In this document: piece after piece, positions 32,619-61,188 of the stretch
Layout of the letters: the number at the start of each line of letters is the position of its first letter
How positions within the stretch are numbered: position 1 is the first letter of the stretch
Source: an uncultured virus (IMG/VR IMGVR_UViG_3300042987_003191)
Lineage: Duplodnaviria; Heunggongvirae; Uroviricota; Caudoviricetes
Direction: 5' to 3' (one strand)
Length of the DNA: 64,000 nucleotides
Virus record (IMG/VR): IMGVR_UViG_3300042987_003191
Translations under genes and position numbers: made by a program
The notes under the pieces: model-generated
The model's input: only the letters and a program-made list of their open reading frames with translations
Told to the model about the DNA's origin: nothing
Database searches by the model: none

Positions 32619-33014
32619 TTAAACACCAGAATAATCAAGTTCACCAATAAGTCTCACTGTAACAGTGCTTCGCCCATTAAATACAGTTTCCACTTGAGGC
32701 GGTTCAGCATATTCCCAAAGAATATTAGTGGGAGCCTGTACAATACCTTTGAGCGTTGTGCTCATACCAGAAAATACGTCGTCCGGCAATGTAAATCGCG
32801 CATAGCTTCCATATTGCCCGTAATAATGATCGAGAATAGCTTTTGTATTTACATCATTAATGTTTTCAAATTGAAGATCTATGGAATGGCCAAATGAGCG
32901 ATTACCAAACACACGCTTGACAGTTGTTCCTGAAAGCCCGCGATAGGTTTTAGTGGGAAACTGCCCTGGTGTGTAAGCTCGTCCTGTTGGTCTGATAGAA
33001 GGAAATACTGCCAT
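32619..33014 (-). CDS. distal tail protein (M-like)
   Basis: Directly after the tape measure gene; L.F.N, HY..Q.G....F.LP, W.Y..PP. Confidence 0.65.
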   Translation of the reverse strand: MAVFPSIRPTGRAYTPGQFPTKTYRGLSGTTVKRVFGNRSFGHSIDLQFENINDVNTKAILDHYYGQYGSYARFTLPDDVFSGMSTTLKGIVQAPTNILWEYAEPPQVETVFNGRSTVTVRLIGELDYSGV

Positions 33015-36000
33015 TAGCGGATACCAATACTAGAGCGAGTGGAAGGGCTTTGCTTAATCTTATCTAGAGTCATTGACATGCCTCGTTGAGCACCGCCAGC
33101 AATGGAAGCACGACGAGTTTCTGCCATTGCTTGCTCTAATTGTTCCCTGCTAACGTATTCTACGCCATTAATCTTAGTCGTTTCAAACTTCATGCTCAGA
33201 GAAGGCGCCTGAGGCATGCCGGGGGCGCCATTGCCCATGAGGTCACGAGCAGAACGTCCACCGAGCTGCACGGGAATAGAACGACCGTCTGGGAGGGGGA
33301 CAATGGCTTCGTTGTACTTGCCTTCGCCTACAAGGCCAAGGGTTGGGCCGCTAACGGTTCCTCCATTTGCAAAAGCACGGAAGCCGCCAAAAGCGACGCC
33401 GCCATTGGCAAACTGCATTCCGGCAGGCATCTGAGCAATCGGAATATCAGTACCTTGCACGATGCTGCTAGCACCGCCTCCTCCGCCGAATAGACCCCCA
33501 AAGCTGCCCAGCAAGCTGCCAGCCATGGAAGCAATCATGCCAATGCCGCCAAGCACATTAGACGTGCCTCCTTCCTTGATTTGATTAATACCAGCGACAA
33601 TGCCCATGACAGCGCCAGCGGCCATGCCGAGCCCGCCAACTGCTTGTCCAAGACTTTCGTGCCACTTCTTGCCAGCAGCTCCTTCTTTCCCTAACTCTGT
33701 ACCAGCCGTACCAAGAGCATTTGCACTTTCAAACACTGAATTGTCCACCTTGCTTAGTTGCTCGGAATAAGCATTAGCACTTTCAGAAATTGAAGCAGAT
33801 AGTCCTTCGCCGTTGATCCCAATGGCAGATAAGAATCCTGTGTCTCCAGAGGTAAACGGAAGATTTTGAAGCATGCCTCCTGTTTGCCCATTGAAAGGAA
33901 GCGTTTGAAGAGCAGCAGTGCCAGTTAAGAATCCGCCAGAAGTGCCGGCTGCTGTTGTTTGACCAGGAGCAGGAGCAGCGCCTCCGGTTCCAGTTAACGC
34001 AGCAGTGTTAGCTTTAACGGCTTCTGTATTAAGCCTAGTTTCTTCGGTGTTTTTATCTTGAGCTTCAACAGGAGTAGTTGAAGGTTTTGTTCCTTCAGGC
34101 ATATTCTCAGCCGCGCCTTTCGGGAAGAAGTTTTCAATGGCAAACTGAGAAAGTCCTTCCTTGAAGAATTTCTCCACAGGCGCCATGGCAAAGTCAAGGA
34201 AGATTGTCAGCACCCTATCCTTGAGGCCCTCTTGGAATTTCTTAAGCGATTCCACTGCATCTTCGCCACTAATAACCTCCTTGAGGAAACCTTTGTAGTC
34301 GGAAGACGTATCAGTGACAAAGCTATCAATAGTCTCTCGAACAGCTTTAATATTGTCGCGAACTTTTTCAAGATCGTAAATGCGATTAAGTTCTTCATTT
34401 GATGCCCCTTTAAATTCTTGCGCAATTTTCAGCCTTTTCTGCTCTTCTTCTGTTATGCCTCGCAGCAATTCAATCTCATTGCGGAGATTAGAAAGAGTGT
34501 CTTTTACTCGTTTTTGCAGTTCTTGACGCTCTCGGATGGCATCATTTTGCTCTTTCTGTTTGGTAGTCAGCTCATCGACTGCCCTTGCTTCGCTTAGTAC
34601 AAGTTTAATTAATGGAGCAAGCGCCTCTTTCTGCTTATCATTGAGACCAAGAAGTGCTTGTTTGATTTCCGACTCGCGCTGCTCCACCCTGGTCATTTCT
34701 TCCTTGCCAGAAGCAAGAGAAGCAATACTCGCTTGCAGTTGGATTTGTGCTTTTCTGTCTTCGCCAAGCATTTCGCGAAGCGGTTTTGTAACGATTGCTT
34801 GATACCTTGCATCTATTTGATCTTGCTCAAGCTTGAAAAGTCTTTTCTGCTCGGCAAGATATTCCGCCAAGTTTGCAATATCCTTCGTATTCTGCTCTTT
34901 AATTTTCTCGTTATATTCTTCCTTAGCAATTGCATGTTCATATTGCCAAGAAATGGCAGCCTTTTGCAGCTCTTTTTGCCTGTCTGATATATTGGTATCC
35001 ATGTCAATATAGACAAGATAATTATCCAGTTCTTGCTTGTAAATTTTCGCCAATTCGCTAACAAGCTTTTTCTTCTTTTCGTTCTTTTCTTTACCTGCTT
35101 CTATTTCAACATCTCCCAATTCTGCTGTTTGTACTGTCACCGGCTCAGCTTGCTTCCTTGCGGCTGCCAACTGGCCTTCCAAGGCTTGGATGGCAGCGGG
35201 AACCATGGTAGGAGTGATAGTTCCTCGTCCATAAGCGCCAGTTTTTTGGTCTACAAGAGGACCAGTAAATGCTTGCCCTGGCGTCCCCCCTGCAGCCGCC
35301 ATCGCTGTCACTTCAGCAGCACTGGCTTCCACTGGTAAATCACCAAATTTCTTAGCTTGACCGTAAAATCTTTGTAGCAATGCAATTTGGCCTTCAATGG
35401 ACCGAGCCTTGACAGTCGCTTCTGTTTGGGACATCGAAGCAATTGATTGAGCCGCACCCTTAGCTCCGCGCTGAATGTCTAGCATTTTTTCGTAAACCGC
35501 GTTTAAGGCGTTTACAACACTAAAAATAGATGTGATTACTACAGATGCGCCAAGGCTTATCAAACCAAATTTTGCAAGAGCACTTGTCTTGATAAGCTCT
35601 TGCATTTGATAGACAGCAGCCTTTGTATTAAACGCAAAATTAATTAAAGCCGCAATTGCCTGTCCAAATCCAAGCTTGGCGAGTAATTGCAATCCTGATG
35701 TCAATAAAGCTGCCTGCACAACAACATTCGCAATGAATCCGCCAAGCGGAGTATTTACAAATTTTGAAACTTGATTTAATACTTGTAGTATTGATTGTCC
35801 TAAAATCGCGAAGGTTGGAGCGAGATTTTTGACTGTTATAGCTAATGCGCTAAAAATTTCTTTCAACTGCAGCAAGATGTCGTAAACATTGCGGGCGCCT
35901 CCCGTCAACATATTGGCGGCCCCTTCATTGCCTTCCATGGCAGAGCTGAAAGCTTTAATTGCAGCAGTTGCCTGTTTGAGTGTCTCCGTTAAAACTGGGA

Positions 36001-38740
36001 AAACAGTAATAGCTCCAAGTTTTACAATTGGCTCAAATGACTCGTAAAATTTAGTAGTTGAAGTGGTTAGCGCATTCATTGCGCCTTGCAATGTATTTGC
36101 CGCACCTGCGGCACCCTTGCCAAATTTACTTTCCAAAACAATAGGAACATTGCTCATAACTTGTTCGAATGCCTTGCCGACAAACGCACCATCTTCCATT
36201 GCTTTCTTAAATGTGGCAATGTCCATTCGCGCGGCTTCTGCCATAATTGACAAAGCGCCTGGAATTACGTCGCCCAATTGACCGCTAACTTCTTCACTCA
36301 TCAATTGGCCTTTGCTGGCCATTTGAGAGAACGCATAAGTAACGCGATCAACCTTGTCAGCACTAAGGCCAAGAGTCGCAGACGCTTTTGTGATTCCAGT
36401 GAAAAGATTTTCTATTTGCTCTGAGCTAAATCCGGCGGGCGCCATGGATGCGTAAAGTCTTACGAAGCCTTGGCGAGCGCTATCAAGAGGAACGTTAAAG
36501 CGGTTGGCCAGACTTTCAACAAAGCCAAAAGCCCTGTCAGCATTTGCAGCGCTGCCTGTAATGGCAATCAATTGATTTTCAAATGTCTGCAAAGCTTTTG
36601 AAGCTTCAAAAGCCTGTCCTGGTATTGACGTGATAAAAGCAAGCGCCTTATAGGCAGTGCCAAACAGCAAGACTTGCTTAACTGCATTGCCAAACTCGTC
36701 GCCTAACTCTCTAATTGCTCCAGAAAGCGGAATTTTAGATTGACTTAGGAATTTATCTGCTCCACGAAGGCTATTAATTAAATCTCTTTGCGCTAAATAA
36801 TTTTCAGGGAGCTTTGTAGATGGCGCAAATGGGACAATTGCGCCTCCTCTTGAAAAAGGCTGTCCGCTTCCAGTAACGCGATCTCGTCCTCCTCCAGAAA
36901 CAAAAGCATCTCCCATAAAAGTGGTACCAGGCAGTGCTGACTGTCTTTCTGACATGACACTGACGCCACGTAATGCAGAACGTGCATAAGCTTCTGCAGT
37001 GCGACGAGCCATCATTTGCTCGCGGGATTCTCCGCCCATGACATATCGACTTGGTTCTCGACCAACGCCGGCAGGGAGTAAGCCAGCAACGCGAGCAGAG
37101 GGTAATGCACCCTGCATGGAAGCTCCAATGCCAATTTGCACTTGCCGAACATTCACACGAGCAGCAGCTAGTCGTAATGCTGTTTCGATTCGGCTTATTA
37201 GCGAATCAACTTCCTCCGCAATGCGTGATTGCTTAGTACGCGCTTCTGCGTCTTTTAACGCTTGCGCTAAATACGCAAAAGTATCAAGACCGTCCTTTAA
37301 TCCCGCTCCAGTTTCGAAAACGCTAACTTCTAATACAGTAAACATGCGACGCAGCGCATTATCTAGATTTTTTTGAAGTTCTGCATAGATGCGTTTTGTA
37401 TCAACCAACGCCCCTCCTCCAGGCGGCAACATTCTTGGCCCCTGTTGGGCGATAAGCGCTTCCACAATCGCCTGTGTTTGGCTTCGCCCAGACATTGACG
37501 GCAGCAGTCCCACTGGAGCCTGCGCAGCGCCAATCATTCCTGCTGGGCCAGCGCCAGCAGAAAGAGCGCGCCCAGTTGAAGAAGGGCCAATGGAAACAGG
37601 ACGAAAAGGTACAGTCGCGGGGAAATTAACACCAGGCAACGCTCTCCGCTGCGCCGCTTGCTGCCGCATAGAAGCGACATCCATGCCAAGCATGTTGAAT
37701 AAGCCACGCGCAAAAGTGTCAAGCACTTTATTAAGTCCGCTCCTATCGGGATTGCGCATTACAGCCTGAGGATCGAGATATTTAGTGATCATCTCGATGG
37801 AAGCCTCTGTGACAATCCTCTCGATCAGATTTTGAGTGTTCCTGAACTTACCAACGCCAGCCACTCCTAATTGTTTTCCAATGTCTTTGAGTTCCCCGAT
37901 ATCTCGTCCTTGAAGAGACTGCCTAAGACTTTCTCTGCGAGCGGGTTCAGTAACGCCTCCTCCCATGCGCTCAGCGCCCATTTGCTGAATGCGCTCCAAT
38001 CCGGCTAATACTTCTTTTTCAATCTGCGCTTTTGTTTTGCCTCCTCCAATGGTTTCTAGTTCCGCGTTAATTTTTACGGTGATTCCAGATAGTTTGCTTT
38101 CTACCGCTTTCTTGAATGCCTTTATATCGGCGCTTAAGATTGATGGCTTAATGCTTGTCTTTGCAAGCAATGGTTTCTGTCGATTGATGCTTTTCTGAAG
38201 AGCCTTAAGCAGGTCTTCAACTTTAGGCACATCCAGCTTCGTTGGAATTTCTAACGCGCCAATTTTGCTCAGCTTGTCTTTTACTGCTTTTTTGAAAACA
38301 GCAATATCCTCATTCGTAATCGAAGGCTTGACGCTAGTTTCAATACGCAGCTTACCACCGCCTTGCTTAATTTGCTGATTTTGAGCAAGTCTTTCCTTGA
38401 TAGACGCAACAACTTTATCGACGTCCTTGCCAGTAGCGCCATTTTTAATGTTTACGGGAATTTCAACTTTCTTTGTTTTACTTAATGCCTCAAGTCGTCC
38501 TTGAATACGTTCAAGTTGATCTTTAGTTAATCCTCCCAGAAGGTTAAGCTCAATATTGATTTTCTTTTTTCCTAATGCGCGTTCTAAATTGCGCAGCTCT
38601 TTAGTAATAACAGAACGATCAAATTTGACATTGATGGGCATGTTGTAGCCCGCTGCCGCCTGCCCAAGCCCTGCTAATTGCTGCCTAAAAAATCCCAGGT
38701 CAAGACTTACCTTCAGCTTCAATTCGGCGTCTTGAGCCAT
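33014..38740 (-). CDS. tape measure protein
   Basis: 1908 aa; tape-measure domain (AFSQMASKGQLMSEEV.GQLGD..PGA) and C-terminal FA.GG...GE...EAIVPL. Confidence 0.93.
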   Translation of the reverse strand: MAQDAELKLKVSLDLGFFRQQLAGLGQAAAGYNMPINVKFDRSVITKELRNLERALGKKKINIELNLLGGLTKDQLERIQGRLEALSKTKKVEIPVNIKNGATGKDVDKVVASIKERLAQNQQIKQGGGKLRIETSVKPSITNEDIAVFKKAVKDKLSKIGALEIPTKLDVPKVEDLLKALQKSINRQKPLLAKTSIKPSILSADIKAFKKAVESKLSGITVKINAELETIGGGKTKAQIEKEVLAGLERIQQMGAERMGGGVTEPARRESLRQSLQGRDIGELKDIGKQLGVAGVGKFRNTQNLIERIVTEASIEMITKYLDPQAVMRNPDRSGLNKVLDTFARGLFNMLGMDVASMRQQAAQRRALPGVNFPATVPFRPVSIGPSSTGRALSAGAGPAGMIGAAQAPVGLLPSMSGRSQTQAIVEALIAQQGPRMLPPGGGALVDTKRIYAELQKNLDNALRRMFTVLEVSVFETGAGLKDGLDTFAYLAQALKDAEARTKQSRIAEEVDSLISRIETALRLAAARVNVRQVQIGIGASMQGALPSARVAGLLPAGVGREPSRYVMGGESREQMMARRTAEAYARSALRGVSVMSERQSALPGTTFMGDAFVSGGGRDRVTGSGQPFSRGGAIVPFAPSTKLPENYLAQRDLINSLRGADKFLSQSKIPLSGAIRELGDEFGNAVKQVLLFGTAYKALAFITSIPGQAFEASKALQTFENQLIAITGSAANADRAFGFVESLANRFNVPLDSARQGFVRLYASMAPAGFSSEQIENLFTGITKASATLGLSADKVDRVTYAFSQMASKGQLMSEEVSGQLGDVIPGALSIMAEAARMDIATFKKAMEDGAFVGKAFEQVMSNVPIVLESKFGKGAAGAANTLQGAMNALTTSTTKFYESFEPIVKLGAITVFPVLTETLKQATAAIKAFSSAMEGNEGAANMLTGGARNVYDILLQLKEIFSALAITVKNLAPTFAILGQSILQVLNQVSKFVNTPLGGFIANVVVQAALLTSGLQLLAKLGFGQAIAALINFAFNTKAAVYQMQELIKTSALAKFGLISLGASVVITSIFSVVNALNAVYEKMLDIQRGAKGAAQSIASMSQTEATVKARSIEGQIALLQRFYGQAKKFGDLPVEASAAEVTAMAAAGGTPGQAFTGPLVDQKTGAYGRGTITPTMVPAAIQALEGQLAAARKQAEPVTVQTAELGDVEIEAGKEKNEKKKKLVSELAKIYKQELDNYLVYIDMDTNISDRQKELQKAAISWQYEHAIAKEEYNEKIKEQNTKDIANLAEYLAEQKRLFKLEQDQIDARYQAIVTKPLREMLGEDRKAQIQLQASIASLASGKEEMTRVEQRESEIKQALLGLNDKQKEALAPLIKLVLSEARAVDELTTKQKEQNDAIRERQELQKRVKDTLSNLRNEIELLRGITEEEQKRLKIAQEFKGASNEELNRIYDLEKVRDNIKAVRETIDSFVTDTSSDYKGFLKEVISGEDAVESLKKFQEGLKDRVLTIFLDFAMAPVEKFFKEGLSQFAIENFFPKGAAENMPEGTKPSTTPVEAQDKNTEETRLNTEAVKANTAALTGTGGAAPAPGQTTAAGTSGGFLTGTAALQTLPFNGQTGGMLQNLPFTSGDTGFLSAIGINGEGLSASISESANAYSEQLSKVDNSVFESANALGTAGTELGKEGAAGKKWHESLGQAVGGLGMAAGAVMGIVAGINQIKEGGTSNVLGGIGMIASMAGSLLGSFGGLFGGGGGASSIVQGTDIPIAQMPAGMQFANGGVAFGGFRAFANGGTVSGPTLGLVGEGKYNEAIVPLPDGRSIPVQLGGRSARDLMGNGAPGMPQAPSLSMKFETTKINGVEYVSREQLEQAMAETRRASIAGGAQRGMSMTLDKIKQSPSTRSSIGIR

Positions 38741-38774: not shown

Positions 38775-39241
38775 TCATTGTTCTTGGTTGCGCCCAGCAA
38801 AAGCCTTCATTTCATCGGCAAGCAATGCAATAACACGCCCGTCCATTCTTCTTGTCTTCATTAAACGCTGCAGAACAATCAAGCTTGCGTCCGTCACGCC
38901 ATCTTCTTTCTTAAGTTGTTTGGTATCAAACGGCAAGAAATCCTCAGGCTTTACTTTGCTCTTTCTTCCCGCCATCATCCCTGCTGCCATAGTGCCAAGC
39001 TTGGCCACGGCAACACTTGCGACATTGTATTTTGCAATGTCATGACGGTCAAGATATTTCAGCGCACGCTTAACGTCATCAAGCTTCTGGAGGCCAAAAT
39101 TTTTGGCGCTCCATCGCTCGTCATTGAAGTCAGAAGCTGAGAGCCTGAAATAGATTTCGTTCCAATCTGTCAAGCTCTTAAGCTGCTTCCTGGCTTGCGC
39201 TTCAAGCCTTTCTGCTACTGAGGGCCATTCCTCTTCGCTGC
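38775..39241 (-). CDS. tail assembly chaperone, -1 frameshift extension (T-like)
   Basis: -1 frame is open from the slippery site at 39242-39248 through LTDWNEIYFRL to the stop at 38775. Confidence 0.8.
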
Positions 39242-39748
39242 CTTTTTTGCTTCTACAGCCTCCTGCGTCTCAGCATTTTGCTCTTCAGCAATAAATTCAA
39301 CCACTTTTGCAATGGCTTTACGCGGAAGATTCTTGGTGTCTTCAATCTCCCAATCGCCAAGGTCCTGCCATTCGCCGTCAATGAGACCCTGCCCACGAGA
39401 GCGAATGAAGGCAGTGACCATGCGGGCATTAGTGGCTTCCACCGATGATCCGCTGGTGATCATGCTCAGCGTCTCCTCTGTGAACTCAGAGAGCAGCTCA
39501 GCTTCTGAAATGGAGCCACCGCCCTGTAGCAGTGCAAAGGCCTCGTCAAGAGGAATCTCACGCGAGGCAGCAATGCGCTTTGCGAGCTGAACGGCACGAA
39601 TGGTAGCTTGGCTTTGCAGCTTGCTGATCTCCTCCTGCTCAATGGATTCAGCAACAAGCCAACTGCCATATTTCTTCAGACGAATTTCAGGCAGCAGCTC
39701 GAAATAGCCTTCAGTCTTGGTTTGAACTAGGAAGCTGTATTTGCTCAT
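39215..39748 (-). CDS. tail assembly chaperone (G-like)
   Basis: Upstream of the tape measure gene; ends ..EAKK (GCA AAA AAG). Confidence 0.8.
   Translation of the reverse strand: MSKYSFLVQTKTEGYFELLPEIRLKKYGSWLVAESIEQEEISKLQSQATIRAVQLAKRIAASREIPLDEAFALLQGGGSISEAELLSEFTEETLSMITSGSSVEATNARMVTAFIRSRGQGLIDGEWQDLGDWEIEDTKNLPRKAIAKVVEFIAEEQNAETQEAVEAKKAAKRNGPQ
39242..39264 (-). promoter_or_regulatory. -1 frameshift site with upstream SD-like stimulator
   Basis: AGGAGG-10 nt-A_AAA_AAG, the dnaX-type arrangement. Confidence 0.8.
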
Positions 39749-42641: not shown

Positions 42642-43550
42642 TCAGGCAGAGGCCTGCACGTAGATCATGCTCTTGGGATAGTACAGAGCAACGCCACCCA
42701 CGCGGGCATGAGCAGGAACGATGAATTCCAGACCACGCTGCTGGGGCGGGAACAGCTCAAGAGGCTGAGGAATGTGCAGTTGCACCTTCTCAGGATCACG
42801 CTTGTACACAACCATGCGGTCGGTGTTCAGCACGCTGTTGTCAGCTTCCAACTGGTTGATGGGCTCAACGTTGCGGATGTAGGGGTTGGTACGCAGGAAG
42901 TACTCAAGCACGGTCACGTCCGAAGAGTCGGAGTTACGAGTGGTGCTAATCTTGTTGTAGTCCGCGTACGACAGCAGAATGGTGTCGGGCTGCTCCTTCA
43001 TCTTCGAGCCGTTGATGATGGCAGTCACGCCATAGTTCAGCAGCTCCAGCATTTCCTGGGCAGTGGTGCCGGCAGTGGTGAACCACTTGTCAGCAGCAAC
43101 AACGTCAACAGTGGAGTTATTGAAGAAACCAGCGAGACCCACAGAGCTTTCGCCAAAGAAAGCCAGACTCTCCACTTTCTCTTCATAGGCACGACGCACA
43201 GCAGCAGCACGACGCTGCTCCAGGGCAATGTTGGCCATTTGAGCAGCACGCAGTTCCTGCACGGTGTAGCCAAAGCTGCCACCAAAGGAACGGATGTTGA
43301 TGCTCTTCTCCACTTGGCTGATGTCAGCACGGGGCAGATCATCAGCAGCGTCCGCAATCAGACGGAACTCACCAGTGGAGTCCATGATGCGATAGGTGAA
43401 GGTCTGGGCGCCAGGACCAGCTTCAGCAGTAACGGGCAGCACAGTGGGATATTTAATATCCGCATACTGCACTTCAAAAACTTGGGGGCGAATGTACTCA
43501 AGCTGACGCTCAAGGAACAGGCCCGCATCATCCATACGGAATTCAGACAT
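42642..43550 (-). CDS. major capsid protein (DUF2184 family)
   Basis: FLERQLEYI, ADDLPRAD, YTVQELRAA, AR.GGV..YYP; start MSEFRMDD. Confidence 0.92.
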   Translation of the reverse strand: MSEFRMDDAGLFLERQLEYIRPQVFEVQYADIKYPTVLPVTAEAGPGAQTFTYRIMDSTGEFRLIADAADDLPRADISQVEKSINIRSFGGSFGYTVQELRAAQMANIALEQRRAAAVRRAYEEKVESLAFFGESSVGLAGFFNNSTVDVVAADKWFTTAGTTAQEMLELLNYGVTAIINGSKMKEQPDTILLSYADYNKISTTRNSDSSDVTVLEYFLRTNPYIRNVEPINQLEADNSVLNTDRMVVYKRDPEKVQLHIPQPLELFPPQQRGLEFIVPAHARVGGVALYYPKSMIYVQASA

Positions 43551-43566
43551 TTTTAAGAGCCTCCTA

Positions 43567-44127
43567 TCAAGAATCAGCAGAGAGGGTGAAGCTCGGACCA
43601 TTCAGCTCCAGAACAGCGAGACCGCTGCCAGTCGTGGAGGTAAGGAAACGAGCGTTTGCGAGGCGAACAGTTTTGCCCGATGCGAAAGCATGGGAGAACT
43701 GACCAACCTTGCCAGTGCCGCTAGCGGAATACAGCACGCGCACGGGAGATGCGGGAGTAACAGCGCCAGTCACATAAACAGCAACTGCACCTTCATTGGC
43801 CACGTTCATGGCTTGCTGGTTCTTCACGCCAGGACGGCTATTTGCATCCAGAGCGGTTTCATCAACATAGGTGAGGACGTTAACGCCCAGCACAGTGTCA
43901 GAAGCGCCAGAGATGGTAGTAGCAGAATTAGCAACGGTACCAGCAGTGTTGTAAACGACAAGATTGCCGAACGGAATAACAGCGCCGGTCTCGTTGAGCC
44001 GAGTGGTGATAGTGTTGTCGCGGATGTCAGACAGTTGACCTTCCAGCAGTGCATTGTGCTGCAGGCTATAAGCCTGTTGCACGCCGCCAGCGGAGGCAGT
44101 GCCCGAAGCAGAGAAAGTTACGGCCAT
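43567..44127 (-). CDS. capsid decoration/cement protein
   Basis: IPFG..V, G.V.V, A.F.TS......A..EL; directly upstream of the capsid gene. Confidence 0.8.
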   Translation of the reverse strand: MAVTFSASGTASAGGVQQAYSLQHNALLEGQLSDIRDNTITTRLNETGAVIPFGNLVVYNTAGTVANSATTISGASDTVLGVNVLTYVDETALDANSRPGVKNQQAMNVANEGAVAVYVTGAVTPASPVRVLYSASGTGKVGQFSHAFASGKTVRLANARFLTSTTGSGLAVLELNGPSFTLSADS

Positions 44128-44129
44128 AA

Positions 44130-45323
44130 TTACTTAGCCTCCTTGGAGATGGAAAGGGGCTTCTTCCAAGCATTCTGCAGCATGTCCATATAAGACGAAG
44201 GTGCAGACTTGGGAGAAGCAATGGAAGCTACGGCTTTACGCAGCTCGTCAGTGGTGACAGAATCTTTGCGGCCCTCAGAGAGAGTATCAAACATTGCCTG
44301 CACGTAGTCGTCGCTCTTCTCAGAAAGATCAAGCTCATCGCCACGCACTGCTTTGATGGAATCAACCATCACTTCACGGGCAGTTTTGCCAGCGAAAGCA
44401 TAAGCAGCATCGAGAACAGGCTTAGCCTTCTCGATGAGAGCCACACGCTCTTCTACCATGGAATCAAGATTGATCTCCTTGGCGGCAGCCAGTTCGGCAG
44501 TCAGTTCTTCAACTTGTTCTGCCAGGGCATCGGCACGACCCTCAGCGGAATCGCACTTGCCCTTCATTTCCTTTTCCATGGCGTCCATCTCAGACTTAAG
44601 CTTTTCAGCCTGTGCCATGGCATCTTCATATTGACGCTTCATATCGGCATAGCTACCTTTCGCGTCTTCACGCTCGGCAGCGATAGCAGCAGCAAGAGCT
44701 GCATCAGCCTCATACGAAACGCCGTCAAACGCAATGTTGGCGGTCATTTTTACTCCTGTAGAGGATAGAAGGTCTTCGACAGCGGCATCCGCTGAATCAA
44801 GCATGAGACGCACTTGCGCCCCACCTCTAGCCCTGTTGACAATAGCAACGTGATTACCACGAATGTTACGCTGAATGCCATCGTAATGCTGGCCATCAGG
44901 AGTAATCCCTGGTTCGGGGCTATAGTCTACCCTGTAACCACACGACACTTCACGCACGTCTCCGCGCATAATTGAGTCGATGGTCTCTTTGTCAGTGACA
45001 GTCAGGGTGCTTTCAACAAAGCCATCGGAGTAGGAGACATCCGCGCTGGTAAAACCAACTGCGTAGTCTTTTGTGTTCAATGCGTCAAGAAGCACCGGAG
45101 GATGTTCTTTAGTGACACATTTCTCCCGAAAACTGTCTAGCGCCTCAACGGCAGCCACTTCCTCTTCGGGCCTGTACTCCAAGCGGACGCCTCCGTTCGC
45201 GTCCGTATAAGACTGAATACCAGTGCGAGCTATCCGCGCTTTAACGCGCAGATAGCCCTCATCCGTGAACGTGTAGTTCTGGATGGTGGAAACGTCGTAA
45301 CGGAAGCCGTTTAAGGTGTCCAT
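44130..45323 (-). CDS. prohead protease/scaffold (DUF2213)
   Basis: EGYL....IARTGIQ.Y, RP.EEV, HPP, EVSCGY, Q.NI.GNHVAIV.RARGG; coiled-coil C-terminus. Confidence 0.92.
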   Translation of the reverse strand: MDTLNGFRYDVSTIQNYTFTDEGYLRVKARIARTGIQSYTDANGGVRLEYRPEEEVAAVEALDSFREKCVTKEHPPVLLDALNTKDYAVGFTSADVSYSDGFVESTLTVTDKETIDSIMRGDVREVSCGYRVDYSPEPGITPDGQHYDGIQRNIRGNHVAIVNRARGGAQVRLMLDSADAAVEDLLSSTGVKMTANIAFDGVSYEADAALAAAIAAEREDAKGSYADMKRQYEDAMAQAEKLKSEMDAMEKEMKGKCDSAEGRADALAEQVEELTAELAAAKEINLDSMVEERVALIEKAKPVLDAAYAFAGKTAREVMVDSIKAVRGDELDLSEKSDDYVQAMFDTLSEGRKDSVTTDELRKAVASIASPKSAPSSYMDMLQNAWKKPLSISKEAK

Positions 45324-45385: not shown

Positions 45386-45670
45386 ATGATGTTCCTCAAG
45401 AAGAGCAATGCCGATGTGCTTAAAATGCCGCATCAGCAAGCTCGTCTTCTCATCGCTTCTCGCATTAAAGAAGCCCGCCTTAACAGCGGGCTTTCACAGA
45501 AGAATGTAGCAGAAGCTTTGCATACAAGTCAGAGTTCTTATTCTCGAATGGAACGCGCAGAACTCGCTCCTGACTGCGTGCAAATTCGCACTCTCAGTGG
45601 ACTCTATGGAATTAGCGTGCTGTGGCTGATGGGCTACCCATCGTTCATTCTTAATGCGAAGCGCGATTAA
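45386..45670 (+). CDS. XRE-family HTH regulator
   Basis: RIKEARLNSGLSQKNVAEAL..SQSSYSRMER...LY.IS..WL.G. Confidence 0.88.
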   Translation: MMFLKKSNADVLKMPHQQARLLIASRIKEARLNSGLSQKNVAEALHTSQSSYSRMERAELAPDCVQIRTLSGLYGISVLWLMGYPSFILNAKRD

Positions 45671-45981
45671 TCCTCTTCTTCATCATCATCGCCACGAAGG
45701 TCGCGCAGTTGATCCTCAATGCCTTCCATAATATATGACTTGGCCATTGCCTCAATTTCAAAAGTAAGGAATTTGGTTGGATCAAAATGAGGGTCAGGCT
45801 TGTCGTAAGCACTCATCACATAGATGTGAGTTTCGTCGAGACGGCCATTCTTGAAGCATTGCTTTTCAACAAGCTCCCAGCGTGAAGTGTTGCGATGTTC
45901 GTTGGCGGAAAGAATGGACAAAGCCTGCATTAGACCAATGCCTTCATCCTCCTGCTCGATAACGCGCACGTATTCGCTCAT
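45667..45981 (-). CDS. hypothetical protein
   Basis: 104-aa ORF with acidic tail, ATGA-coupled. Confidence 0.65.
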   Translation of the reverse strand: MSEYVRVIEQEDEGIGLMQALSILSANEHRNTSRWELVEKQCFKNGRLDETHIYVMSAYDKPDPHFDPTKFLTFEIEAMAKSYIMEGIEDQLRDLRGDDDEEED

Positions 45982-46330
45982 TGATCTTTGTTCCGACTTT
46001 CCACCATCTTAATGATGCGATTTGCCCATGCCCTCCCGGCATCGCCTCCCCATAAAAGCCAAGCAATATATCCAGCATCATTTTCTCCTCCACTTTTGTT
46101 CTTTTCGTGGCGAGAAAAGAATGCAGACATGCGCTTGATAGTGGCGTAGCTAATTTTGCTGCCGCCAGCAAGATCGCCAGCCCTTGCCACGCCACTACCA
46201 ATACCCTGCTTCCCCGCCTCCTGCGTCGTCAAGCCGCCTTTGCCATGCTTCTTGCGCAGCTCTAAACCTCGACGGGCGGCACTCCTTACGGCAGCAGGAG
46301 GGGAGAAGCTTTCAGCGTCTCCCCTCGGCG
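45978..46330 (-). CDS. phage head-associated domain, probably expressed as a -1 frameshift fusion
   Basis: PP.AV...A.RGLELR...G.ARA..LA....S..TIKRM..FF.RH...GYIAWLLWGGDAG..WA domain; no convincing start of its own. Confidence 0.7.
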
Positions 46331-46603
46331 CTTTTTTCCGCAGCTCCCATCCATTTCCTCTTCCATACCATTCTCTTCCTCGGGCTCCTCTACTTCCATG
46401 CACATCATGGTATCAATGTAGGCATCAATGTACGCATCGCTTTTACCTTTCATTGACATACCGGCCTCGGAAAGAGCAATAGCAATTGCGCGGCGTCGGT
46501 CTTTGATTTTCTCTCCGCTACTACTTTTCAGGGTTCCAGCTTTGAATTCCCGTAAAACTTTTGCAACTTTTGCTTGTTTTTGTTTTTTGCTCAGTTGCGC
46601 CAT
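46286..46603 (-). CDS. small basic/acidic protein (DUF6496-like)
   Basis: KVAKVLREFKAGTLKSSSG.K.KDR..AIAIALSEAG. Confidence 0.8.
   Translation of the reverse strand: MAQLSKKQKQAKVAKVLREFKAGTLKSSSGEKIKDRRRAIAIALSEAGMSMKGKSDAYIDAYIDTMMCMEVEEPEEENGMEEEMDGSCGKKRRGETLKASPLLLP
46298..46337 (-). promoter_or_regulatory. candidate -1 ribosomal frameshift signal
   Basis: In-frame A_AAA_AAG (46337-46331), 4-nt spacer, perfect 9-bp stem GAGGGGAGA/TCTCCCCTC. Confidence 0.7.
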
Positions 46604-46646: not shown

Positions 46647-47174
46647 ATGGAAGCAAGGCCTTGTTTAAACTGTAACAACTTTTTCAAGCCAAGAAGAACC
46701 TCCAATGTTTACTGCTGCAGAACATGCCAAGTGCAGCATCTGCGAAAAACAAAAAAAATAAAAGACAGAGTTAAGCAGGGAACTTTATGTAAATGCGATG
46801 TGTGCCATCAAGATTTCTACGTTCCTCAATATAGAAAAAATACGGCAAAATACTGCTCCCGGAGATGCCTGGCTCTTGGTAATCCACAGAATCTGGAAAA
46901 GGCGCAACAAAGCTCGCCAATCATGGCAAGAGCTGCCGCAATGAAAGGCAATAATGCCCCCAAGAAATACAAACAAATCTCTGTAAATGGCAAGCAAGTC
47001 AGGGAGCATAGGTGGCTAATGGAGCAGCATTTAGGAAGAAAGCTAGAAAGCTGGGAGCATGTGCATCATATAGATGGTAATCATTTAAATAATGCCATCG
47101 AAAACTTAGCAATATTGTCAAACGCGGAGCATCAAAGAGAAGAATTAAAGCAATGGCAAAAATTCAATGAATGA
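46647..47174 (+). CDS. HNH homing endonuclease with Zn-finger repeats
   Basis: C..C...F....YCS..C repeats; EHR..ME..LGRKL...EHVHHIDGN..NN..ENL; AT-rich and in opposite orientation to neighbours. Confidence 0.88.
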   Translation: MEARPCLNCNNFFKPRRTSNVYCCRTCQVQHLRKTKKIKDRVKQGTLCKCDVCHQDFYVPQYRKNTAKYCSRRCLALGNPQNLEKAQQSSPIMARAAAMKGNNAPKKYKQISVNGKQVREHRWLMEQHLGRKLESWEHVHHIDGNHLNNAIENLAILSNAEHQREELKQWQKFNE

Positions 47175-47880
47175 ATCCTATAGGAGCGGTGGCAATATTC
47201 ATGTCTGGAAAAAGTTTGTCACGATACAAGACCATGCCAGTAATGAGACGTTCAGCAATAAAAGCTAACGCCCGCTTGTCGTAGCCTCCAATGCGAAGAA
47301 ACTGCTCTTCATGCTTGTGCCAAATAGGCGCCAATGCCACAAATAGTGCGCTCATGAATTGCTTGTACTGAACATTGCTTCCTCTTGCCATGTTGCAGCC
47401 GATAAAGCTATTCTGCTTCCAAATGGCATCAATTTCTTCCCTTGAAAAAATCCAGCTCCCTGAATCCGCAATTTCCCTGGTGATCGCAGGGGCGTCAAAA
47501 GCGGAATGTCCACCATAGAACTGCTGCTCAAGTGTGCAATTAAACAATGCAGGCTCTGGAAAGTACAAGGTATTTTCGTCGTACCATTGATCATTTGGCT
47601 CCAGCCAATTGCGCCTGTATTGCGCATTGCCAATGTTCTTTTCGTTTGCATTAAGAATCATCCAAGAAATACAGGACAATTCTCCCCATCGACTATTGCG
47701 AGTGGAAAGAGAAGCATTCTCATCGTCAAACACATAACCTTGCGCACGGAGCGTTTCACGCTCCTCGCTAGACAAAACATGCGCTCCTCCCATAATGGGA
47801 ACGATGCGAGAGCGGGCTTCGTATCTCACTTTCTCACCTGGAATGCACACGGCATAAATGGTGCAGTCAGACGGTTGCAT
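47164..47880 (-). CDS. DUF4422-like glycosyltransferase
   Basis: D...S..N..WGELS...W.....IG..QYRR...H...NM...R..AFIAERL. Confidence 0.75.
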   Translation of the reverse strand: MQPSDCTIYAVCIPGEKVRYEARSRIVPIMGGAHVLSSEERETLRAQGYVFDDENASLSTRNSRWGELSCISWMILNANEKNIGNAQYRRNWLEPNDQWYDENTLYFPEPALFNCTLEQQFYGGHSAFDAPAITREIADSGSWIFSREEIDAIWKQNSFIGCNMARGSNVQYKQFMSALFVALAPIWHKHEEQFLRIGGYDKRALAFIAERLITGMVLYRDKLFPDMNIATAPIGFIH

Positions 47881-48583
47881 AGACTTTCCTCGCAGACCAC
47901 AGCTCGTTGTAATTGTTCACGCCCTTAGCACCAAGACCAGTGAGATCGCCGCCTCCTGCAGGCTTGCTCCAAGCCATGATCGTGCCATCAGGAAGCACGA
48001 ATGCTCGGTTCTTCTGCCCATGCGTCGGCGTCAACTCAAGATAATCACCATAGACAAAGTTAGCTTGGCTGCCATTTACAGCAAGCGCCTTGCCTAAAAG
48101 CGTCGGACCAGTGGGGCACAATGGCGTGATGCCATAGTATTGCGTTTTGCAATTTTCCACAATCATGTCAATGGCAGCTTGCAGCGCTGCATTGTTTGGT
48201 TTGGAATAGAGCACAGTTGTAGCACAGGCCCAGCTTGTGTAGCTAAAGCGTTGAATATCACGAAAAGCCAAGAATTCAATGCGATCACCAAGGTCCACTG
48301 CATTGAAGGCTCTCACGCCAATATCAAAATACCAGCCGCCAAGCTTGTTCAGCAAGCAGAATCGGCCAAGATCCGCCTTGTAAGAGAATGGTGCTAGACA
48401 ATCATATGCCCATACCACTTCTTCTTCATAGTTCTCGACAATGAAAGAACGAAGCGCATGGCTGTTGTAAATGACATGCTCAGCATCGGGAAAGCATGCG
48501 TCAATGGTTCCCGTGGCATGCTTGAGAAATGGACTCAGCTCTTCTGCTGGATCAGTAGAAAGAAAAATTTGTGAAATCTGCAT
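47867..48583 (-). CDS. glycosyltransferase (GT32/DXD-type)
   Basis: YKADLGRFCLL..LGGWYFDI...TGPTLL. Confidence 0.85.
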   Translation of the reverse strand: MQISQIFLSTDPAEELSPFLKHATGTIDACFPDAEHVIYNSHALRSFIVENYEEEVVWAYDCLAPFSYKADLGRFCLLNKLGGWYFDIGVRAFNAVDLGDRIEFLAFRDIQRFSYTSWACATTVLYSKPNNAALQAAIDMIVENCKTQYYGITPLCPTGPTLLGKALAVNGSQANFVYGDYLELTPTHGQKNRAFVLPDGTIMAWSKPAGGGDLTGLGAKGVNNYNELWSARKVYATV

Positions 48584-48588
48584 GGCAA

Positions 48589-49812
48589 TCAAACAATCTT
48601 GGCGGGAGTACCAAAGCCCTTGAATTCAGGCTCTGCAGGCTTGGCGGCAAGCGTTTCATTCACTACATCTTTAAGCTGCTGTTGAATGTAGGGCCATGTA
48701 AACGGCTCCTCATGGAGACGCTTGTAGCACCATTGTCCATGCTGCTTGAGAATGTCGCGGTTCTCGTAGTAGTAAGTGAGAATATTTGCGGCGCATTCAG
48801 GATCTGGAAGTAAACGCTCCAAGCCATAATTTCGATCTGTTTCGCTGGCGTTGCATTCAATGCGAGGCATCTCATCAAAGATTTCAGCCAAGCTTGTATG
48901 GTCTGGAACCACTTGCGCCACGCCAGTGGCACCATGCTCCGAGTTGACCAGGCCCCATCCCTCGCCAATGCAAGTATTAATGCCAATATCGGCAGCGTTA
49001 TACACTTGGTTCAACTGCTCAATGGGAAGACAGTTATCCACTGAATAGTGCGGACTTGTCAAGATGAGCTTGCTTGTTGGGTCAAAGCCTTCATCACGCG
49101 CCACGCGCTTAAAGAGCGGCACCAATTCCCACCCCAAATCCTTGCTGCCCATATTGAGCCATAGACGAGCGTCGTCCTTATCTTTGGCAAATTTGATGAA
49201 CGCCTTAATTGTTAAGTCAATGCGCTTACGTGGCTGGTTCCTATTGCCATTGAACACGACGAACACATCATCTGGCACGCCAAGCTTCTTGCGACATTCT
49301 TCCTTGTCCATAGGGAAGAATTTCGCAAAGTCGGTGCCATGGCCAATAATACGCACGGGCTTTGTGTAGCCCATTAGCTCAAGCTCTTTCTTCGCAAATT
49401 CCGTATAAGTGGCAAGCCCATCCCATTCCATCATGGGCTTAGCCAAGTCTGGGAACAAGCCGTAGGAATCAATGGGAGTGTAGACAAACCATTTGAAGCC
49501 AAGCTGCTCCTTCAACGGCTTCGCCTTTTCCCATAGCTGCAAGGCAATCCAAATGTCATTGGTCACCCATACAAGGTCCGGCTTGAATGCTTGAATGACG
49601 CCTGCAATGCGATGGGAACCAAATGGGTCATTGCCATGCAGCATGGCAGGATAAACCGTATAGTTCTTCGCTTCTGGATGGGGGTCACCATGGAAGTTTA
49701 CGGCTAATACAGCCACTTCATGCTCTTCCGCTAATGCAGAAAGCAAATATTGCGCCACTCGTCCAAAGCCTGTCTCTACAAAGGCATCGCCACAATACAG
49801 AATGCGGGCCAT
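48589..49812 (-). CDS. GT-B glycosyltransferase (GT4-like)
   Basis: TGFGRV, NRNQPRKRIDL, YNAADIG.NT..GEGWGL...EH.A.G. Confidence 0.9.
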   Translation of the reverse strand: MARILYCGDAFVETGFGRVAQYLLSALAEEHEVAVLAVNFHGDPHPEAKNYTVYPAMLHGNDPFGSHRIAGVIQAFKPDLVWVTNDIWIALQLWEKAKPLKEQLGFKWFVYTPIDSYGLFPDLAKPMMEWDGLATYTEFAKKELELMGYTKPVRIIGHGTDFAKFFPMDKEECRKKLGVPDDVFVVFNGNRNQPRKRIDLTIKAFIKFAKDKDDARLWLNMGSKDLGWELVPLFKRVARDEGFDPTSKLILTSPHYSVDNCLPIEQLNQVYNAADIGINTCIGEGWGLVNSEHGATGVAQVVPDHTSLAEIFDEMPRIECNASETDRNYGLERLLPDPECAANILTYYYENRDILKQHGQWCYKRLHEEPFTWPYIQQQLKDVVNETLAAKPAEPEFKGFGTPAKIV

Positions 49813-49872
49813 AGTCTCCCCTGAATCTTCGTCATCTTAAGGGGCTTTTATACTGATGGCAAAAGGAGGCAA

Positions 49873-50568
49873 ATGACATTACCACTTGGTTCAATACGCT
49901 TTTGCATTAGTACGTGCAAGAAATTTGCCCCGCATACAATTCCCGTCATCATTCCTAGCTTGCTTGCTGCTGGCATCAAGCAAGAGGAAATTTTAATCGT
50001 CAATGGCGGTCAAGCTGTTCGCGCCAATACAAGCTACAAAGGCGTGCCGATGCTGCTGACGCAGCAGAATTCCTTTGAATACACGCCGCTCATTGAAATT
50101 GTTGAACATTCAATGGAGAGCCAGTATTGGTTTCTCCTTCATGACACATGCATTGCAGGCCCCCTCTTCAAGGCACTGGCTTATGAGCCTCCTGTAGAGG
50201 CTCCAGAGAAGGTGGCAATGAAGCAAACGCCTTCGATGAGCATTGGCCTTTATCGCCACGACTACCTCATGGCTCATAAGGATCGTTTGATGGCTATCAA
50301 GAACTTGGACAGCTCTCCCGAGGCGCTGCAGCGCTGGAAGCAGTGGGGCGTACCAAACGAGGACTATATGCTCTGGAAGCTCCAGGACGTGCCTTGCCAC
50401 ATTTATCATCTCGACAAGCACGGTCCTGATGAATGGAACTATCAGGGGCACGCCGATCCATATGGCACTGGCATGCAGCGCCGCATTGAATATTTTCCGC
50501 AATTGCACCTCGCTAAAGCCAAAAGCAACTGGCAAGGCGTTCAACCACACCTTTGCATTGACATCTGA
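49873..50568 (+). CDS. putative GT-A glycosyltransferase-like protein
   Basis: ISTC......IP..I.SL...G, NSFEYT.LI, YWFLLHDTC; inside the GT cluster. Confidence 0.55.
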   Translation: MTLPLGSIRFCISTCKKFAPHTIPVIIPSLLAAGIKQEEILIVNGGQAVRANTSYKGVPMLLTQQNSFEYTPLIEIVEHSMESQYWFLLHDTCIAGPLFKALAYEPPVEAPEKVAMKQTPSMSIGLYRHDYLMAHKDRLMAIKNLDSSPEALQRWKQWGVPNEDYMLWKLQDVPCHIYHLDKHGPDEWNYQGHADPYGTGMQRRIEYFPQLHLAKAKSNWQGVQPHLCIDI

Positions 50569-51521
50569 TGAAGCGTTTGGCAATTATCGGCGGAGGCTGG
50601 GTGGGATGTCATTTGGCAATGGCATTCCGCGATGAGATGGAAGTGACGTTGTATGAAAAGAATCATACGCTCATTTCAGAAACTTCTTTTATCAATCAAA
50701 ACCGTTTGCACTATGGCTACCACTATGCCAGAAATGCTGCAACTCGCCGCTTGTGCGCCACTACTTTTGTGCGCTTCATGGAGGATTATGGCGATCTCGT
50801 TCATGACGTAGAGAATAATTATTACGCAGTGTCAGAAGATGAAAGTCTTCTTGATGCTGAAACCATTTCAATTATTTTCGGAAAGGGTCCGCACACTCAT
50901 TTGAATCCACGAGCTTTTAACCACACATCGCTTTTGCTGGCCACTCCCGAAAAGCGCATTGATGCCATTGGAGCAAGCCTGTATTTTCAATGGCGCCTAG
51001 AACCGTTGGTCAAAAGAGAAAAAATTCAGCAATGCAATCTGCAAGCATTGAAGCAAGATTACGATTTTGTTTTCGACTGTACCAACAATGCTCTCTTGGA
51101 GCCATTGCCCTCTCATTTCTTTGAGGCAGTAACAATGTTTGTTTACCGCCCCAAGGCTCCTCTTCCGTTCGGTGCCCTCACCTATATTGATGGAAGTCTA
51201 TTCTCCATCTATCCATATAACGATAAATGCTTCTCATTGAGCCATGTCAAGTATGGCATCATGAACGGCAATTCGCTCGACAATGCGGACAATGCAAGGC
51301 AATTAACTGAACAGCACGTGGAGCGTTACTGGCCGGACTTCGCCGATAGCTTTGACTATCTATTTCCCACTCTTTCAATTAAAGCGAAGACAAAAGACTG
51401 CAGCGCTAATCGCACGCCATTGATGCGTCAAGATGAAAATCTATTCTCTTTCTTCACGGGCAAAATTCAAGGCATCTATGCCATTGAAAGCATGGCTAAG
51501 CAAATTATTGCTCAGCCATAA
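50568..51521 (+). CDS. FAD-dependent oxidoreductase
   Basis: IIGGGWVGC...V.LYEK.....S..NQNRLH.GYHY.R...GKI. Confidence 0.85.
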   Translation: MKRLAIIGGGWVGCHLAMAFRDEMEVTLYEKNHTLISETSFINQNRLHYGYHYARNAATRRLCATTFVRFMEDYGDLVHDVENNYYAVSEDESLLDAETISIIFGKGPHTHLNPRAFNHTSLLLATPEKRIDAIGASLYFQWRLEPLVKREKIQQCNLQALKQDYDFVFDCTNNALLEPLPSHFFEAVTMFVYRPKAPLPFGALTYIDGSLFSIYPYNDKCFSLSHVKYGIMNGNSLDNADNARQLTEQHVERYWPDFADSFDYLFPTLSIKAKTKDCSANRTPLMRQDENLFSFFTGKIQGIYAIESMAKQIIAQP

Positions 51522-52252
51522 AGCTGCCTAAACAGCGGATACTCTCGATGGTGCTGAGAAGCATTCACAAGCTCGCGCGTAATTCCGCCTTGGTAGCTAC
51601 TTGCGACTAAGAGCCGTTTGATTTGCTTGTGCTCATACTGGTTTAAAATGGGACCATTGTCAGTGTCGCTGATATGGACGTGAGCAATAAAGCGAAAGTA
51701 ATGTTTGATAATCTTTGTTGGACTATCGCCCTGTAACCAAGCATTATTTGTATCAAGCATTGTCTTTACGTTGCGCAAATTGTAAAAGTCAATGTGATTG
51801 ATAATCTCCTCAACTGTATAAAAATACTTTCCACCAAATGCTTTTGCAATCGGCTCAATACAAAGAATGGCATCATTGGCGTTCAATATTGAATCCATGC
51901 GCCTCAAAACCTCCATCAAGCTTGACGGGCTTCCCCTGCGCAAGGCGGGACTGCCAAGGACGAAGCGCTTAATGCCCATTAGGGAGCCAAGCTTCACCAC
52001 TCGCAATAAATGCTCTTGCGTGGCAGCAGTGTCCTCAAAACTTTGAACGGCGCTGTCGTAGAACAGCGCCTGAGCTGAATAGGCCCAAAGCCCATAATGC
52101 TCCCTATAGCGCTTTGCAATGTCGCCAAAGTCTTCGTTTCTAGCAAAGATGCGAGACGGTACCAGCTCAATGAAATTAAAAGCGCCGGCATTGGCGCTTA
52201 AGATTTCATGCTCTTCTTCATCTTTCCAGCCAATCGCACTAATTCCAATCAT
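51512..52252 (-). CDS. sugar phosphate isomerase/epimerase (xylose-isomerase-like TIM barrel)
   Basis: IS.IGW, IEL.P, S.QAL.Y, V.GSP..R, LCIEP, LDT, HVHIS. Confidence 0.8.
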   Translation of the reverse strand: MIGISAIGWKDEEEHEILSANAGAFNFIELVPSRIFARNEDFGDIAKRYREHYGLWAYSAQALFYDSAVQSFEDTAATQEHLLRVVKLGSLMGIKRFVLGSPALRRGSPSSLMEVLRRMDSILNANDAILCIEPIAKAFGGKYFYTVEEIINHIDFYNLRNVKTMLDTNNAWLQGDSPTKIIKHYFRFIAHVHISDTDNGPILNQYEHKQIKRLLVASSYQGGITRELVNASQHHREYPLFRQLYG

Positions 52253-52964: not shown

Positions 52965-52966
52965 GC

Positions 52967-61115: not shown

Positions 61116-61188
61116 TGGCGGAGACAGGACTTGAACCTGCGACCTCCAGGGTATGAACCTGGCGAGCTACCAACTGCTCTACTCCACT
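61116..61188 (-). tRNA. tRNA-Met(CAU), initiator-like
   Basis: Full cloverleaf; anticodon CAT; 1:72 mismatch and A11:U24 initiator hallmarks; no encoded CCA. Confidence 0.9.

Follow-up and report, generated by a model that had tools for sequence, protein, structure and literature searches.

A probable programmed −1 ribosomal frameshift that would join a DUF6496 protein to a widespread helical module in the head-gene block of an S-CBS4-like cyanophage

We analyzed a stretch of 64,000 nucleotides (nt) from an uncultured tailed virus (IMG/VR record IMGVR_UViG_3300042987_003191; Caudoviricetes), hereafter the window, and in it a pair of overlapping reading frames on the minus strand. The first, ORF1 (46603..46286), encodes a zero-frame product of 105 amino acids, including a 14-residue tail past a candidate slip site. 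Residues 7–47 (46463..46585, minus strand) match the Pfam family DUF6496 (PF20106) above its gathering cut-off (33.1 bits versus 24, E = 7.5e-8). Its N-terminal DUF6496 module is basic and is followed by a KSDAYIDAYIDTMM helix and then by a Glu-rich, acidic linker (the isoelectric point (pI) is 9.9 for residues 1–68 and 4.05 for the linker). The second frame, hereafter the extension (45978..46331, minus strand), lies in the −1 frame of ORF1, comprises 117 residues plus a stop codon and belongs to phrog_2859 (E = 6.4e-17), whose function class is unassigned. The source of the window is a freshwater S-CBS4-like cyanophage (cyanosiphovirus); the closest cultured phage is Synechococcus phage S-CBS4, which has the same gene order and is 78.8% identical across the extension.

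At the junction ORF1 reads TGC GGA AAA AAG, with GGA at 46339–46337, AAA at 46336–46334 and AAG at 46333–46331. The heptamer A_AAA_AAG (46331..46337, minus strand) follows the slippery pattern X_XXY_YYZ, is in phase with ORF1 and lies within the overlap of both frames; it is made up of a run of six adenines (A6, 46337–46332) and G46331. From G46331 onwards the −1 frame reads APRGDAESFSPPAAVRSAARRGLELR...GYIAWLLWGGDAG... and ends with a stop codon at 45980–45978. Past the heptamer, a 4-nt spacer (CGCC) leads into a stem-loop (46298..46326, minus strand), in which GAGGGGAGA (46326–46318) and TCTCCCCTC (46306–46298) form a 9-bp stem around an 11-nt loop; the conserved 8-bp core begins 5 nt past the heptamer. 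Inside the loop, GCT and AGC are able to pair around GAA. The folding energy calculated for a 66-nt piece with the hairpin is −28.2 kcal/mol (z = −2.53), and it is equalled by 3 of 200 shuffled sequences. A weak, possible Shine-Dalgarno (SD)-like element, GGGAG (46344..46348, minus strand), is found 6 nt upstream of the heptamer. The predicted products are a protein of 105 residues and a fusion of 91 + 117 = 208 residues. An earlier interpretation based on the DNA letters and their translations (the sequence-only reading) had proposed this reading of the ORF, the heptamer region, the stem at 46326–46298, its GCT/AGC extension and products of these two sizes; we confirm all of them on the minus strand.

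We conclude that the head-gene block of this S-CBS4-like cyanosiphovirus most probably contains, at the junction, a programmed −1 ribosomal frameshift cassette; the signal and its conservation are observed, and the slip itself is inferred. When a ribosome that translates the DUF6496 ORF reaches A_AAA_AAG, the stem-loop 4–5 nt downstream would lie at its mRNA entry channel. Most ribosomes would stay in frame and terminate 14 codons later in the window, and two codons later in most relatives. A fraction would pause at the hairpin and slip back by one base, with AAA-AAG re-pairing as AAA-AAA; these ribosomes would enter the −1 frame and add the 117-residue helical module. The short and the long protein would thus share the N-terminal DUF6496 module and the acidic linker.

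The arrangement of the two frames was compared in two sets of relatives. The first was drawn from an IMG/VR scan with the window extension (best 80 of 383 relatives) and contains 81 sequences with both parts, namely 79 IMG/VR loci, S-CBS4 and the window; a locus cut by a contig end (L027) and Limnohabitans phage DC31, which has no ORF1, stand outside this count. The second was drawn from a scan with the S-CBS4 extension (best 80 of 536 relatives) and comprises 66 loci after removal of 14 duplicates of the first set, among them the IMG/VR copy of S-CBS4 itself (L084). In the first set, the extension is found in the −1 frame of ORF1 in 76/81 sequences, and all 76 carry an in-phase heptamer in the frame overlap (72 A_AAA_AAG, 4 G_GGA_AAG). 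The remaining five are continuous in-frame fusions; four of them have no heptamer, and in these R(G/D)DAESF follows immediately on the acidic linker; the fifth is locus L064. The −1 layout with an in-phase heptamer is seen in 44 of the 66 second-set loci (34 A_AAA_AAG, 8 G_GGA_AAG and 2 C_CCA_AAG), next to 18 in-frame fusions with several different junction types, two loci with the extension in the +1 frame via a one-base loss at the run (L114, L143), one locus cut by a contig end and one (L139) left unresolved by our script, which by eye reads G_GGA_AAG followed by CGC TGA. Over both sets, the −1 layout accounts for 120 of 147 entries from many metagenomes and a cultured isolate, and natural in-frame fusions for 23 loci (5 + 18), all but one of them without a heptamer. 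A representative sequence, P0001, is likewise an in-frame fusion of both parts. The use of three interchangeable in-phase heptamers, together with the repeated occurrence of fused forms, points to a functional recoding site rather than to an error or a pseudogene.

A programmed −1 frameshift is not the only way in which the downstream domain could be expressed. It could be a gene of its own, with translation that begins at an internal or non-canonical start codon or resumes after termination close to the ORF1 stop (termination-reinitiation). The RefSeq annotation of S-CBS4 has this form, with gp018 and gp019 as separate genes and gp019 starting from GTG, and in phage DC31 the module stands at the N terminus of a 265-residue protein with its own start. 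The GTG of gp019 is not conserved, however: among 46 distinct junctions this codon (codon 15) is GTA in 20, GTG in 16 and GTT in 10, and thus behaves as a valine codon. It is located inside the conserved domain, downstream of an F-PP motif, and homology begins upstream of it. No ATG, GTG or TTG occurs among the first 15 −1-frame codons in 29 of the 46 junctions. The earlier description of the domain as one with no good start of its own therefore stands insofar as there is no conserved start codon. In five first-set loci, a TGA immediately before the heptamer closes the −1 frame (13-nt overlaps), which leaves the heptamer as the only entry to that frame. In 42/46 junctions the heptamer is followed two codons later by the zero-frame stop, which could in principle allow coupling, but in the window and in L003 a TGA-to-CGA change puts it 42 nt further on, and heptamer and stem are unchanged; the signal is thus separable from the stop codon. 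The 23 in-frame fusions speak against independent translation as well, and two separate genes would give no reason for an in-phase heptamer that is conserved in three interchangeable forms. We consider two separate genes very unlikely.

The frame break could also reflect a homopolymer error of assembly or sequencing, or a recent inactivating mutation in a single in-frame gene. In favor of this, genuine in-frame fusions exist and the A-run is prone to changes in length: L064 (1198–1845) has a true A7 that brings both parts into one frame, L114 has A5, and L143 keeps A6 and has lost the G just before the run, the latter two with the extension in the +1 frame. Each of these three variants may be either a real insertion or deletion or a homopolymer assembly error. 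The apparent A7 in L003, L037, L053 and L058 is a GGA-to-GAA substitution in the preceding codon and leaves the length unchanged. For the window itself, we compared assembled Logan contigs of 4 runs, none of which lists an insertion or deletion. A contig of run X7 (record 22, 208 nt, depth 122.6), which comes from a different study, spans 46219–46426 with 0 gaps, and the A6 run on which the sequence-only reading depends is hence borne out by an independent assembly; contigs of the RNA run X15 cover 45900–46311, and the heptamer falls outside this coverage. The recurrence of the same −1 layout across metagenomes and a cultured isolate is at odds with an error, and the in-frame lineages mostly lack the heptamer altogether rather than carrying A7. 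We give an artifact or a recent inactivation almost no credence.

The hairpin is conserved along with the heptamer. Over the 46 junctions 90% of the aligned stem cells are paired. Loss of any of the eight core pairs is rare, whereas the outermost G-C pair and the inner GCT/AGC extension vary more. One pair (columns 18 and 34) covaries, being AU in 22, CG in 13, GU in 3, UG in 3 and unpaired in 4 junctions; its two bases are the third of a Gly codon and the first of a Ser/Ala codon. In 78 distinct frameshift junctions, the core stem is complete in 66 (8/8) and lacks one pair in 12 (7/8), with a mean minimum free energy of −17.6 kcal/mol. The 11 distinct in-frame junctions have on average 6.45 core pairs and −9.0 kcal/mol, and still keep the peptide R(G/D)D(A/S)ESF (Mann-Whitney p = 7e-6 for frameshift versus in-frame stems, which is indicative only, as the sequences are related). 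A stem that is weaker in fused forms in spite of the retained peptide indicates that the hairpin is preserved as an RNA structure, chiefly where the frameshift is required. The homolog comparison thus finds heptamer and stem conserved in the −1 layout, and in-frame fusions that have almost all lost the heptamer and mostly have a weaker stem; heptamers, stem and fusions together give strong comparative support to the earlier proposal that a programmed −1 frameshift joins the DUF6496 ORF to the downstream domain. A further claim, that the junction creates a new RGD-A site, did not hold: RGD-A is encoded past the slip, by −1-frame codons only, and the site is kept in most natural in-frame fusions (as RGDA, RDDA or RGDS). 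The related suggestion that a protease may free the second domain there found no support.

Transcriptional slippage on A-runs is known in bacteria and insertion sequence (IS) elements, and the frame could accordingly be changed at the RNA level, through stuttering of RNA polymerase on the A-run, which would give some transcripts an extra A, with no slip of the ribosome. The run is long enough to invite this idea, with A6 in the window and A7–A8 in some relatives. However, 13 loci have G_GGA_AAG (4 in the first set, 8 in the second and L139) and 2 have C_CCA_AAG, with three adenines only, which is too few for polymerase slippage. A conserved hairpin 4–5 nt downstream that is weaker when the frame is fused also fits a ribosomal pause signal. 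Polymerase stuttering appears highly improbable to us as the source of the long product.

The module that the predicted frameshift adds has no match in Pfam or NCBIfam, and no enzymatic family is found in the 208-residue product. In an exhaustive HMMER search, we located it in at least 3,731 clusters (50% identity) at E ≤ 0.001, with 1,621 at E ≤ 1e-10, from bacterial and haloarchaeal tailed viruses. It is placed N-terminally, centrally or C-terminally in proteins of 115–1,588 residues, at times in two or three copies. A Pfam scan of 53 of the 150 best module representatives returned as co-domains InPase, a 2H/LigT (Acb1-like) phosphoesterase, the XkdF protease, ddrB-ParB, topoisomerase IB, Phage_portal_3 and Phage_capsid, and the small modules DUF5661, DUF6582, DUF5824, DUF5872 and ChaB. 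In cultured phages, the module is found under features annotated as major capsid protein, capsid maturation or prohead protease, head morphogenesis, DNA methyltransferase and ParB-like; in phage S-CBS1, it forms the N terminus of an 836-residue ‘major head protein’ encoded directly after the portal gene. The module has a pI of 10.4, invariant Arg/His residues and two glycine-rich turns, G(K/R)GG and GIGSGV-RA. By eye only, these turns could suggest a helix-hairpin-helix (HhH) DNA-binding domain; no Pfam HhH match was found among the 53 members scanned. DNA or nucleotide binding is a reasonable guess from these sequences.

AlphaFold2, run on a 53-row alignment, predicts a seven-helix fold (predicted local distance difference test (pLDDT) 92.7, predicted template modeling score (pTM) 0.84). 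The module sequence matches no PDB chain, a Foldseek search of the PDB returned no match at E ≤ 0.001 (best E 1.0), and the best hit of VIA-align among 48,161 chains (Z 4.3) is not convincing. In BFVD, there are 57 structural matches at E ≤ 0.001, with the names prohead protease, portal, XkdF, Mu gp29-like and ParB. The ESM Atlas neighbors of the module are unnamed viral clusters, with a score of only 0.86 for DUF6321; DUF6321 is matched weakly in 3 of the 53 module members.

The added module is probably a minor head-interior protein, possibly DNA-bound or ejected, because it is fused elsewhere to the portal, to the prohead protease and to the N terminus of protease-capsid polyproteins. The head association assumed in the sequence-only reading is thus a reasonable inference from fusions elsewhere. 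In Iyer et al. 2017 (PMC5512222), portal/MuF fusion and location among virion genes are taken as signs of packaging and injection, and the same reasoning on fusions leads to a probable head-interior placement of the module. Like the polyvalent and cargo proteins treated there, the module shares polypeptides, in other phages, with InPase, 2H phosphoesterase, ddrB-ParB, methyltransferase, portal and protease domains; it is likewise fused to Phage_portal_3, Phage_capsid and XkdF, and its gene lies within the head block of the window. Unlike them, the 208-residue product consists of two small non-enzymatic modules only. The module is also without a Pfam model, including those models built from Iyer et al. 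2017, and attachment by recoding is not described in the part of that article available to us (PMC5512222). As a broader and tentative reading, which we think possible and would rate as rather unlikely, this helical module of 105–110 residues could be a structurally new capsid-interior module that is carried into the head by attachment to whatever enters the procapsid, with the frameshift setting the copy number of a DNA-bound or ejected protein. Its carriers would then be the portal C terminus, the N terminus of protease-scaffold-capsid polyproteins and, in S-CBS4-like cyanophages, DUF6496 as an ‘address’ module.

ORF1 differs from the extension in its conservation. Among the first-set loci L003–L082, identity is 47–84% for ORF1 versus 87–100% for the extension (80 loci), and the length of the Glu-rich linker varies between relatives. 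Just ahead of the slip site, many metagenome contigs break off or diverge, with loose ends at 46342–46360. Both the far greater variability of ORF1 and the contigs that diverge here suggest that the slip site also marks a mosaic or recombination boundary. In an alignment of 29 ORF1 variants, 9 match phrog_530 weakly (best E 0.0014); the ORF1 profile has no match among PDB sequences. A complex prediction with two copies of ORF1 residues 1–70 scored 0.00 and gave no answer, which is evidence neither way. A weak common motif, KSD-Y---A--DT, is seen between ORF1 residues 49–66 and residues 331–348 of a DUF2213 protease/scaffold protein encoded downstream (44130–45323), with BLASTP E 0.03 across 18 residues and an hhalign probability of 4.5%. 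The resemblance may be due to chance or to a capsid-binding or cleavage motif present in both proteins. As a capsid-targeting or cleavage motif common to ORF1 and the DUF2213 C terminus (KSDAYIDAYIDTM versus KSDDYVQAMFDTL) it is, together with the phrog_530 matches, too weak, and we set it aside, keeping it as a lead only.

ORF1 and its extension are surrounded by a head-gene block on the same minus strand. The portal gene (Phage_portal_3, 53634–55721, minus strand) encodes a C-terminal DUF5872 at residues 508–620; DUF5872 belongs to the small modules found elsewhere alongside the domain that the frameshift would add. A block of sugar-related genes (47164–53650), partly present in S-CBS4 too, separates the portal from the head genes and contains a group-1 glycosyltransferase, a DXD-motif glycosyltransferase, DUF4422, a xylose-isomerase-like TIM barrel and an FAD oxidoreductase. 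The gene that follows the extension (45667..45981, minus strand) encodes 104 residues with no family match and corresponds by synteny to S-CBS4 gp020; its ATG and the stop codon of the −1 frame overlap (ATGA). Further downstream are the DUF2213 protease/scaffold gene (45323..44130), the cement protein gene (44127..43567) and the major capsid protein gene (43601..42642), all on the minus strand. Two genes on the opposite strand interrupt this block, an HNH endonuclease (HNH_3, 46647–47174, plus strand) and an HTH_3 repressor-like gene (45386–45670, plus strand), which are syntenic with S-CBS4 gp017 and gp021. The sole tRNA gene found in the window is tRNA-Met (CAT; 61116–61188, minus strand), and no tRNA-Lys is among the tRNA genes found there.

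The window contains a second in-phase A_AAA_AAG (39248..39242) in a pair of tail-assembly-chaperone type (39748..38775, minus strand). It lies 25 nt before the stop of a 177-residue ORF (39748..39215), and the −1 frame is open to 38775, directly upstream of a tape-measure-sized ORF of 1,908 residues (38740..33014). This appears to be the expected tail-assembly-chaperone frameshift, in which case the phage would use A_AAA_AAG twice, and it serves as an internal positive control for the heptamer. AAAAAAG is rarer than expected in the window (14 copies on both strands versus 25.6 expected, with at least 14 in all 100 shuffles), and 2 of the 14 copies are the two candidate frameshift sites. We rejected the idea that ORF1 and its extension are themselves the G/GT pair of a tail assembly chaperone: they lie between the portal region and the DUF2213 protease, not before the tape measure.

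Escherichia coli dnaX, which encodes tau and gamma, uses A_AAA_AAG with a stem-loop a few nucleotides downstream and an SD-like stimulator about 10–14 nt before the site. The site in the window has the same heptamer in the same phase and a downstream stem-loop, and some relatives have a GGAGG-like element about 12 nt upstream. In dnaX, however, the shifted ribosome stops almost at once and makes the shorter product, whereas here the shift would add a domain of 117 residues; relatives of the window lack a consistent upstream SD-like element, and the gene belongs to the head region of a phage and does not encode a polymerase subunit.

The slip site of the phage lambda G/GT chaperone is G_GGA_AAG, the heptamer also found in 13 of our relatives, L139 included. 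As in G/GT, short and long forms with a common N terminus are predicted, and the second ORF is commonly annotated, in error, as a hypothetical gene of its own. The location in the head module, the lack of sequence relation to chaperones and the presence of a separate chaperone site in the same phage set our case apart. Frameshifts in head genes have precedents in T7 gene 10A/10B, where the coat gene is shifted, and reportedly in the major head protein of Lactobacillus phage A2. Like these, the site described here is a −1 frameshift in the head module that would give a C-terminally extended minor form; there the capsid protein is extended, whereas here a small DUF6496 protein would gain a mobile module that is fused to many head proteins. 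In the literature, tail assembly chaperone −1 frameshifts are described in general terms (PMC12846349, PMC10885494), capsid genes are listed among phage frameshift genes (PMC10885494), the frameshift signal of the T7 coat gene is mentioned and the cyanophage frameshift is a tail chaperone (PMC12846349).

Several points weigh against our interpretation. Both products are predictions from the sequence, and the A6 check was made on assembled contigs of 4 runs. A spacer of 4–5 nt to the stem is among the shortest for efficient bacterial −1 sites. Relatives do not share the upstream SD-like element consistently: a GGAGGA 12 nt before the site is present in about 20 of 54 distinct upstream sequences, and in none from S-CBS4 and several others; such motifs arise by default, as the region encodes poly-Glu. 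Many loci are close relatives, so that the counts overstate the number of independent events. The head-interior role of the module is argued exclusively from domain fusions in other phages. Finally, the 23 in-frame loci make no short form by termination, which indicates that the short form is dispensable in some lineages and weakens the case for an important ratio of the two forms. The sequence-only reading had proposed that recoding fixes the ratio of two internal head proteins; this is plausible for the frameshift lineages and is not essential, given the loci that would make the fused form only.

The mechanism itself is well known, and the novelty lies in the gene family alone. As the earlier interpretation had surmised, we found no description of a frameshift in this family in the literature searched, which did not extend to the original S-CBS4 genome paper, and RefSeq lists two separate hypothetical proteins for S-CBS4. 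The literature search found no paper on DUF6496 by name. New here are a third type of heptamer (C_CCA_AAG), the size and diversity of the in-frame lineages and the decay of the stem in them, the displaced stop in the window, the spectrum of fusion partners and a confident predicted fold of the module that matches no known one in our PDB searches.

For annotation, our findings mean that S-CBS4 gp018 and gp019 should be merged into a single recoded gene, and likewise in their many metagenomic relatives; gene callers now assign the second half a false internal start or miss it. The family also offers a natural experiment, with frameshift lineages that use three heptamers next to in-frame lineages with a decayed hairpin, and this contrast is a clean comparative case for selection on a frameshift stimulator inside a coding sequence. 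Lastly, it brings into view a very widespread phage module with a confidently predicted fold, whose fusion partners suggest that it may travel inside the capsid, and S-CBS4 is a cultured phage in which this capsid-interior idea could be tested.

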